Sequence record: PP925844.1
Length of the DNA stretch: 64,000 nt
DNA from: Escherichia phage Elenatom
Reading direction: 5' to 3' (one strand)
The notes under the pieces were generated by a model. That model had not been told where the DNA came from and ran no database searches. It saw nothing but the letters and a program-made list of their open reading frames with translations. This document shows positions 35,925-36,280 of the stretch, piece by piece. Positions within the stretch are counted from its first letter, which is position 1. The number at the start of each line of letters is the position of its first letter. A program made the translations under genes and the position numbers.

Positions 35925-36000
35925 TGGGGTGACCGATGGGAGTCGAACCCATGACTACGAGAATCACAATCTCGAGTTCTACCAACTGAACTACGGCCAC
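35925..36000 (-). tRNA. tRNA-His: tRNA-His (anticodon GUG), no encoded G-1
   Basis: Acceptor GTGGCCG/CGGTCAC; anticodon loop UUGUGAU; discriminator C; CCA encoded. Confidence 0.65.
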
Positions 36001-36094
36001 ATTAATACCTACTCCAACAATCAAGATGTCTTCACACGAAATTAAGAGAAGAGTGATCAGTTCAACCCCTATAATCGCGTCAAGTAGATATTAA

Positions 36095-36110
36095 TGTGAC
36101 AGTTGTCACA
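36095..36110. promoter_or_regulatory. Perfect CRP-like palindrome TGTGA-N6-TCACA in tRNA-cluster spacer
   Basis: TGTGAcagttgTCACA in 114-bp spacer between tRNA-Asn and tRNA-His. Confidence 0.25.
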
Positions 36111-36114
36111 AATT

Positions 36115-36189
36115 TGGCGGACGTGATAGGATTCGAACCTATAACCAATCGCTTAACAGGCGATCGCTCTGCCATTGAGCTACACATCC
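36115..36189 (-). tRNA. tRNA-Asn: tRNA-Asn (anticodon GUU)
   Basis: Acceptor GGATGTG/CACGTCC; anticodon loop CUGUUAA; T-loop TTCGAAT; CCA encoded. Confidence 0.7.
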
Positions 36190-36193
36190 AAAT

Positions 36194-36280
36194 TGGTGGG
36201 GAGTGGTGGAGTCGAACCACCCGAGTCGCAATGACAATGAATTTACAGTCCACACCGCTATCTCTACGGGATAACTCCCC
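36194..36280 (-). tRNA. tRNA-Tyr: tRNA-Tyr (anticodon GUA), class II
   Basis: Perfect acceptor GGGGAGT/ACTCCCC; anticodon loop CUGUAAA; long variable arm; CCA encoded; anticodon stem has two G-U pairs. Confidence 0.6.

Follow-up and report, generated by a model that had tools for sequence, protein, structure and literature searches.

The three extra tRNA genes of Escherichia phage Elenatom: a T2-type allele of the T-even tRNA region with an added tRNA-His cassette

What are the three additional transfer RNA (tRNA) genes that Escherichia phage Elenatom carries between its genes for tRNA-Ile and tRNA-Arg, and what might they contribute to infection? The stretch of DNA analysed here (sequence record PP925844.1, 64,000 nucleotides, called the window below) had been inspected before from its letters only. 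In that sequence-only reading, eleven tRNA genes were folded by hand on the minus strand, three of which, with anticodons GUA (Tyr), GUU (Asn) and GUG (His), came in addition to a set of eight known from phage T4. ARAGORN arrives at the same number, with eleven minus-strand genes between 35845 and 36862 in the transcription order Gln-Leu-Gly-Pro-Ser-Thr-Ile(CAU)-Tyr-Asn-[114 nt]-His-Arg, and agrees on the identity and the placement of the three extra genes. These are genuine phage tRNA genes, and the window contains a T2-type allele of the T-even tRNA region, devoid of the homing endonuclease gene segB, to which a tRNA-His cassette has been added. The account as a whole, in which genuine tRNAs of such an allele would support translation both by serving codons in heavy use and by replacing host tRNAs, we consider probable.

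The three genes are located at 36194-36280 (tRNA-Tyr), 36115-36189 (tRNA-Asn) and 35925-36000 (tRNA-His), all on the minus strand. Their reality is supported by the ARAGORN calls for all eleven genes, the Rfam matches of ten of them, the identity elements, the anticodon loops and the covariation of tRNA-His. The Rfam tRNA model (RF00005), for which a canonical tRNA has to exceed a gathering threshold of 29 bits and to fold into a four-armed cloverleaf, places all genes except tRNA-Tyr above the gathering score. tRNA-Asn has the highest score in the window (74.1 bits) and tRNA-His reaches 65.1 bits, with E-values of about 1e-12 to 1e-14, far past chance; ARAGORN folds both as cloverleaves. Classification as pseudogenes by tRNA predictors had been named beforehand as the outcome that would speak against the three genes: tRNA-Asn and tRNA-His pass both ARAGORN and Rfam, whereas tRNA-Tyr falls below the Rfam threshold and carries a pseudogene flag in one record. 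All three encode their CCA end, as had been read from the gene ends, and their anticodon loops are those of E. coli tyrU, asnT and hisR. Identity elements expected for each are also present, with A73 and a long variable arm in tRNA-Tyr, G73 in tRNA-Asn, and C73 with the GUG anticodon in tRNA-His.

In the ARAGORN fold, tRNA-Tyr is a class II tRNA with the features of its bacterial counterparts: the GUA anticodon, the long variable arm, A73 and a G1-C72 pair. Its D stem is weak, with one C-C mismatch, and its anticodon stem contains the two G-U pairs that the hand folding had already shown. The GUU anticodon, G73 and encoded CCA of tRNA-Asn are those expected of a bacterial tRNA-Asn, and the gene is identical to the tRNA-Asn gene of T2. 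The Karamvirus and Jiaodavirus arrays have an 85-nucleotide tRNA-Asn(GUU) with a long extra arm (loci L006 204-288 and L007 193-277); such a class II-like tRNA-Asn is unusual. For tRNA-His, an alignment of eight phage lineages plus E. coli has 99.5% of the cells of the cloverleaf paired, and compensatory changes are present in 11 of the 21 pairs. None of 500 shuffled controls scored as high and partners slid out of register were only 33-50% paired; this strong covariation shows that the tRNA-His gene is under selection.

The correspondence of the remaining eight tRNAs to the T4 set holds by anticodon, but two of the eight are divergent alleles. tRNA-Ile(CAU), called as Met from its anticodon (36290-36364, minus strand, CCA encoded), and tRNA-Arg(UCU) (35845-35920, minus strand) are identical to their T4 equivalents at just 47 of 75 and 48 of 76 positions, while for the six other shared tRNAs identity ranges from 63/74 to 74/74. 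Those six, for Thr, Ser, Pro, Gly, Leu and Gln, occupy 36366-36862 on the minus strand and are common to T4. The anticodon stems of the Gln and Pro tRNAs differ from those of T4, with both stem strands changed. Both divergent alleles are of T2 type: tRNA-Ile(CAU) is the T2 gene, and tRNA-Arg, like tRNA-Tyr, has two differences from T2. In a BLAST comparison with T4, collinearity is lost inside tRNA-Ile at 36345 and regained at 35476, where homologs of rnaD and rnaC begin.

This interval is organised differently in each of the classical T-even phages. In T4, segB separates tRNA-Ile from tRNA-Arg, and rnaD and rnaC come next; T6 has Ile(CAU)-Tyr-segB; and T2 (AP018813) reads Ile(CAU)-Tyr-Asn-Arg, with a 351-bp open reading frame (ORF) behind. 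The tRNA regions of T2L, RB1 and RB3 have been described as lacking segB, with T2L carrying the Tyr and Asn tRNAs at the segB-less site, and it is the tRNA-Asn gene of T2L that contains the preferred SegB cleavage site (Brok-Volchanskaya et al. 2008, PMC2330249). The window has the same arrangement. A tblastn search of the window with T4 SegB gave nothing significant, the order Ile(CAU)-Tyr-Asn-Arg is kept, and the SegB cleavage motif RAWTSGAAC is present inside tRNA-Asn at 36130-36138, read on the plus strand. The window differs from T2 in having tRNA-Thr where T2 has an ORF, and in the cassette between tRNA-Asn and tRNA-Arg.

Pairwise alignment with T2 shows the cassette as one clean insertion of about 190 nucleotides (roughly 35923-36112, minus strand), in which a small hairpin and some 94 nucleotides of leader precede tRNA-His. 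Microhomology (CCAAAT/CCCAAT) makes its ends ambiguous by 1-3 nucleotides. Karamvirus Entb_43 and the Jiaodavirus phages KP1079 and RCIP0032 have a unit of leader plus tRNA-His too, placed between tRNA-Gln and tRNA-His; there the leader is 82-87% identical to that of the window and tRNA-His matches at 68-75 of 76 positions. Given these matches, the cassette most likely derives from a Gln-His module of the Karamvirus/Jiaodavirus type and would have moved as a unit between genera of the Tevenvirinae.

The gene set is not new, since a T2-type allele with a His cassette is already known from hundreds of sequenced phages. The window belongs to a Tequatrovirus, and its 1.1-kb cluster is about 99.8% identical to those of Tequatrovirus HP3, vB_EcoM_C2-3 and others; 981 phage records match it, 333 of which cover at least 80% of its length and have tRNA genes annotated there. 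It is at least 99% identical in 50 records, and the His cassette is near-identical in 168. Gene content by itself changes nothing: this is a known variant, and its tRNA-Tyr is a near-copy of one that acts against the Septu defence.

How might the extra tRNAs support translation? They would be transcribed together with the other genes of the operon, and host RNases would then excise them. Codons were counted in the ORFs of the window and in a 50-kb E. coli sample. The sequence-only reading had suggested a comparison with host usage for Tyr, Asn and His, and its outcome is divided: Tyr and Asn codons are commoner in the phage (1.8 and 1.66 times, respectively), while His codons are rarer (0.69 times). 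Per thousand codons, TAT occurs 36.4 times in the phage and 14.1 times in the host and AAT 46.2 and 13.5 times, whereas CAT is equally frequent in both. The codons read by the eight shared tRNAs are enriched 1.6- to 8.9-fold. The extra genes would thus be expected to supply tRNAs for Tyr and Asn codons, which this AT-rich phage uses heavily; they may in addition replace or out-titrate host tRNAs destroyed by tRNA-cleaving defences.

The three extra tRNAs belong to the queuosine family, whose four members (Tyr, His, Asn and Asp) are the target set of the colicin E5-type anticodon nucleases; Asp is present as well in the larger arrays of Karamvirus and Jiaodavirus. This composition and the host-identical loops fit a replacement of host tRNAs destroyed by defence nucleases. 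For other phage tRNAs, variants of the anticodon loop have been proposed to evade nucleases (PMC10264068). Loop mutations of this kind are excluded here, as all three anticodon loops equal those of the host; the three tRNAs look more like replacements or dosage supplements than like evasion variants.

An effect of replacement or dosage has been shown by experiment only for the tRNA-Tyr of T6 against Septu (PMC13096335). Septu cuts tRNA-Tyr in its variable arm (Chihara et al. 2026, PMC13096335). T6 is rescued by overexpression or amplification of its own tRNA-Tyr, which was detected and functional in experiments; T4, which is without a tRNA-Tyr gene, cannot escape, and T2 is resistant (PMC13096335). 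The tRNA-Tyr of T5 counters retron-Eco7 (PMC11555353). The tRNA-Tyr gene of the window is identical to that of T6 at 86 of 87 nucleotides, with the single difference in the D-loop, and likewise follows tRNA-Ile(CAU), making it a candidate counter to Septu or retron-Eco7 by its identity to the tested T6 tRNA. In T6 the next gene is segB, which amplifies tRNA-Tyr under Septu pressure; segB is absent from the window, and the T6-type route of amplification is therefore absent as well.

Several observations weigh against this account. The top match of tRNA-Tyr within its Rfam clan is tRNA-Sec, at 29.2 bits and thus under the gathering score of 47, with no RF00005 match at the gathering score, and the gene is labelled 'tRNA-OTHER / tRNA-Pseudo' in the HP3.1 GenBank record OK275722; these pseudogene flags are outweighed by the near-identical T6 gene, which works in experiments. 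The T6 tRNA-Tyr is itself cut by Septu and helps only at raised dosage (PMC13096335). Codon demand fits Tyr and Asn and does not fit tRNA-His, given the 0.69-fold use of His codons, and a role of tRNA-His in translation alone is doubtful because the efficiency of histidyl-tRNA synthetase (HisRS) falls more than 100-fold on substrates that lack a guanosine at position -1 (G-1). Finally, T4, T2 and the Tequatrovirus teqskov live without some or all of these genes, which makes the extra tRNAs accessory.

G-1 is the main identity element of histidine tRNAs, and the HisRS of the hosts depends on it. The phage tRNA-His has neither an encoded G-1 that could pair with C73 into an acceptor stem of eight base pairs nor a U at -2; instead, T is found at -1 and A at -2. 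Alignment to E. coli hisR confirmed what the hand folding had indicated, C73 without an encoded G-1, and the two genes align base for base once the first 5' G of hisR is left out. The likeness between them is otherwise considerable, with the GUG anticodon in an identical loop, C73 (invariant in alignment A2), CCA, the pairs G1-C72, U2-A71 and G3-C70, a nearly identical D arm and 61 of 76 positions in common. Apart from the missing G-1, the phage gene differs in having a G4-U69 wobble pair where hisR has G4-C69, and in the structured leader in front of it. A register shifted by one, with G36000 taken as G-1, was rejected, because position 8, an invariant U, would then be an A and the 3' end would read CCCA.

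The missing G-1 brings up the alternative that survives best, namely that this is a specialised tRNA-His that either resists or titrates a tRNA-His nuclease or keeps U-1 to place the 5' phosphate for HisRS, with the leader hairpin directing its 5' processing. We regard it as possible, with the balance tipped against it. The trait is shared by the relatives: U at -1 and C73 are present in every T4-like tRNA-His sampled (Tequatrovirus, two Karamvirus, three Jiaodavirus-type phages, two Winklervirus, Kagamiyamavirus, Kanagawavirus, Gualtarvirus and Aeh1). A BLAST search with E. coli hisR as the query gave 338 records that cover at least 80% of it, and all 55 T4-like alignments among the matches listed begin at +1, never at G-1.

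Phage tRNA-His genes more commonly have the G. In an IMG/VR sample, G is found at -1 in 62 of 67, and T at -2 is almost always present in the G-1-bearing genes. Among the 61 distinct phage tRNA-His genes of a census, 43 have G-1 and 18 do not. All 18 have T at -1 and C73, and U69 is found in 17 of them (13 times as a G4-U69 wobble pair), as against about 13 of the 43 genes with G-1, which are mostly G4-C69. The G-1-less trait extends over Tevenvirinae, Aeh1, Gualtarvirus, Vequintavirinae and mycobacteriophage Catera. Both this spread and the association of U-1, C73 and U69 argue for specialisation. On the other hand, many of the 18 sequences are mutually related, so that the U69 association may reflect shared ancestry, and the loss of a single G from UGG leaves U at -1, which needs no selection.

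The tRNA-His of Catera (locus L262 152-225) has the same acceptor stem as that of the window, GUGGCCG/CGGUCAC, with the G4-U69 wobble. Four IMG/VR loci from outside the T4-like phages (L115, L119, L130 and L058) also have a G-1-less tRNA-His with U-1 and C73. In the first three, leader (AUUAGGU) and trailer (CCUAAU) are complementary, and the acceptor helix thus runs on past the U-1/C73 mismatch; CCA is incompletely encoded, and the 5' and 3' context is unlike the T4-like hairpin.

What would happen to such a transcript in an enterobacterial host? For RNase P of E. coli, U-2 and G-1 steer the cut to the -2/-1 site, while C73 disfavours the canonical site; loss of G-1 lowers the efficiency of E. 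coli HisRS by more than 100-fold (PMC5499578, which for the latter cites Himeno 1989 and Connolly 2004). For the phage precursor with its U at -1, RNase P would be expected to cut between -1 and +1, leaving an acceptor stem of seven base pairs without G-1 and thus presumably a poor substrate for the host HisRS. Yet the base of G-1 mainly sets where the 5' monophosphate lies (review PMC9976931), and this, together with the weakening of canonical cleavage by C73, leaves room for retention of U-1. Both properties count in favour of a specialised tRNA-His, as does the nicking of C-rich 3' acceptor strands by retron Eco2, phage T5 tRNA-His included (PMC12916289), which makes U69 a speculative lead. 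The role of tRNA-His might be one of weak charging, U-1 retention or a decoy.

Histidine tRNAs without an encoded G-1 are known from some alpha-proteobacteria (Caulobacter type), some protists and mitochondria of C. elegans, likewise from systems in which no guanylyltransferase is known (PMC9976931). These known types combine A73 (with U72 too in Caulobacter) with a HisRS that has co-evolved, in the alpha-proteobacterial type in its motif II loop, or that is tolerant (PMC9976931), whereas the phage tRNA-His must use the G-1-dependent enterobacterial enzyme; by its retention of C73 and C72 it falls outside the known G-1-less class. A literature search for phage tRNA-His without G-1 found no paper, and one on the tRNAs of Tequatrovirus gave only papers about mitochondrial genomes, which is not proof that the trait is unpublished.

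The 114-nucleotide spacer between tRNA-Asn and tRNA-His, on which the sequence-only reading was silent, is structured. A small hairpin, UGUGAC-AACU-GUCACA (36095-36110, minus strand, from the minimum-free-energy fold), starts four nucleotides past the CCA of tRNA-Asn and marks the cassette's 5' edge; the 3' half of the hairpin (TGTCACAT) also occurs in the Gln-His spacer of Karamvirus. The leader proper follows (36001-36094, minus strand, defined by folding and covariation). In the minimum-free-energy fold of the window, a basal helix of 13 pairs, formed by 36082-36094 with 36002-36014, encloses a variable interior of about 67 nucleotides, and the leader has a folding z of -4.2. In most other lineages a fourteenth pair, of A with U-1 (36001 in the window), closes the helix, and this pair is invariant in the nine-lineage alignment (A3).

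Independent folds for each lineage gave the same plan, a helix of 13-15 base pairs between the nucleotides directly past the upstream tRNA and those directly ahead of tRNA-His. In alignment A3, 97.6% of the helix is paired and 6 of the 14 pairs show compensatory changes, with slid controls at 41-53%. The G-U pairs of the helix argue for an element at the level of RNA, on the tRNA-sense strand, and not of DNA. It is kept together with tRNA-His in Karamvirus, Jiaodavirus, Winklervirus, Kagamiyamavirus, Kanagawavirus, Gualtarvirus and Aeh1. The size of its interior ranges from a four-nucleotide UACG loop to about 90 nucleotides. In Kanagawavirus Q7622 the entire Gln-His spacer is a 31-nucleotide hairpin with a UACG loop; the Gualtarvirus version has 61 nucleotides, and in Aeh1 the hairpin abuts -1. 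ChuuTotoro, from the Vequintavirinae, has a 31-nucleotide UACG hairpin of different sequence that stops a few nucleotides before +1. A covarying hairpin ends exactly at -1 in Straboviridae, and a related one a few nucleotides before +1 in Vequintavirinae. Outside the window, such structured spacers are located at L006 906-1001, L007 903-998, L258 384-414 and L259 372-402.

Our best guess is that the leader is a processing or punctuation helix, perhaps a site of the RNase III type or an element that determines how the 5' end matures. The precise termination of a covarying helix at U-1 favours a link to a specialised tRNA-His. Two observations speak against a function reserved for tRNA-His: closed domains are not confined to this spacer but are formed by other long spacers of the arrays, so that the hairpin may be general punctuation, and in teqskov the spacer is kept although tRNA-His is gone. 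In teqskov (L008 1124-1331) the genes for Thr, Ile, Tyr and His are gone, as is most of Asn; the 3' end of its tRNA-Asn and the whole structured spacer now stand directly before tRNA-Arg. In Karamvirus and Jiaodavirus, spacers closed by long-range helices are located at L006 609-736 and at L007 585-745 and 1075-1170; they may represent additional stable RNAs, similar in kind to T4 species 1 and 2, that have escaped annotation. At L006 1304-1399, directly after a homolog of the 5' part of rnaC, ARAGORN calls a 96-nucleotide 'tRNA-Phe'.

Known elements do not account for the spacer. An Rfam scan with E up to 10 returned no family and only noise; tmRNA_permuted reached only 12 bits, and the YrlA matches were due to the tRNAs. 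No meaningful alignment was obtained with rnaC or rnaD, discarding a paralog of these. A scan for sigma-70 promoters found no site for the transcribed strand in 36001-36114, and by eye no good MotA box or late promoter was seen in the spacer. A hammerhead-like CUGAUCA in the leader lacks the core G and has no Rfam match. Exact matches of a 14-mer from the leader to IMG/VR were nearly all due to chance, with true homologs only in L012 and L229. In the literature, no description was found of a hairpin that ends at the 5' nucleotide of tRNA-His.

Taken further, these features would define a distinct phage-type tRNA-His (no G-1, U-1, C73 and usually U69) in T4-like and some unrelated lytic phages, Catera among them, that is matured or used differently from the host tRNA-His. 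We put this forward tentatively and think it rather unlikely. Such a tRNA might be histidylated without G-1, retain U-1, serve as a nuclease-resistant substitute, or act as a decoy against a defence that targets tRNA-His. If true, it would be a new solution for the identity or the maturation of tRNA-His in the best-studied phage-host pair. If the phage tRNA-His is charged, the G-1 rule has a naturally occurring exception in E. coli; if not, it is a conserved non-translating tRNA. What deserves note in any case is that a G-1-less tRNA-His with compensatory changes and its adjoining hairpin are conserved across a whole phage subfamily.

A further alternative is that the three tRNAs only match the AT-rich codon usage and have no part in counter-defence. 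Supplementation of codons is the classical proposal for the eight tRNAs of T4, and it is favoured by the enrichment of Tyr and Asn codons, the strong preference for NAU codons, and the enrichment of the codons read by the shared tRNAs. As an explanation for all three genes we find it unlikely: His codons are under-used and CAT is used alike in phage and host, a G-1-less tRNA-His would be a poor supplement, and the T6 ortholog of tRNA-Tyr has a demonstrated effect against Septu (PMC13096335). That the genes are decaying passengers of gene conversion driven by homing endonucleases in a hypervariable region, of no present benefit, is very improbable: the region is indeed a mosaic in which T4, T6, T2, teqskov and the window differ in gene content, SegB targets these tRNA genes (PMC2330249), tRNA-Tyr has its D-stem mismatch and pseudogene flag, and tRNA-His lacks a major identity element, but tRNA-His shows strong compensatory covariation across genera, cluster and cassette are conserved among the many records counted above, the genes have kept their anticodon loops, discriminator bases and CCA ends, and function has been shown by experiment for the tRNA-Tyr of T6 (PMC13096335).

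The leader may be compared with T4 species 1 and 2 (rnaC and rnaD), which are also structured non-tRNA segments between or after tRNAs of the same transcription unit. In sequence they are unlike the pre-His leader. A T arm resembling that of a tRNA is present in rnaC; the leader, by contrast, forms a domain closed by a hairpin and adjoins the 5' end of a tRNA. In the window, homologs of rnaD and rnaC are present at 35136-35476 on the minus strand, after an ORF of 116 amino acids at 35476-35826 (phrog_3355, of unknown function) that is absent from T4 at this position. In the rnaD homolog both ends are conserved, and the central 55-60 nucleotides or so are swapped for unrelated sequence. A terminator-like hairpin is located at 35145-35168.

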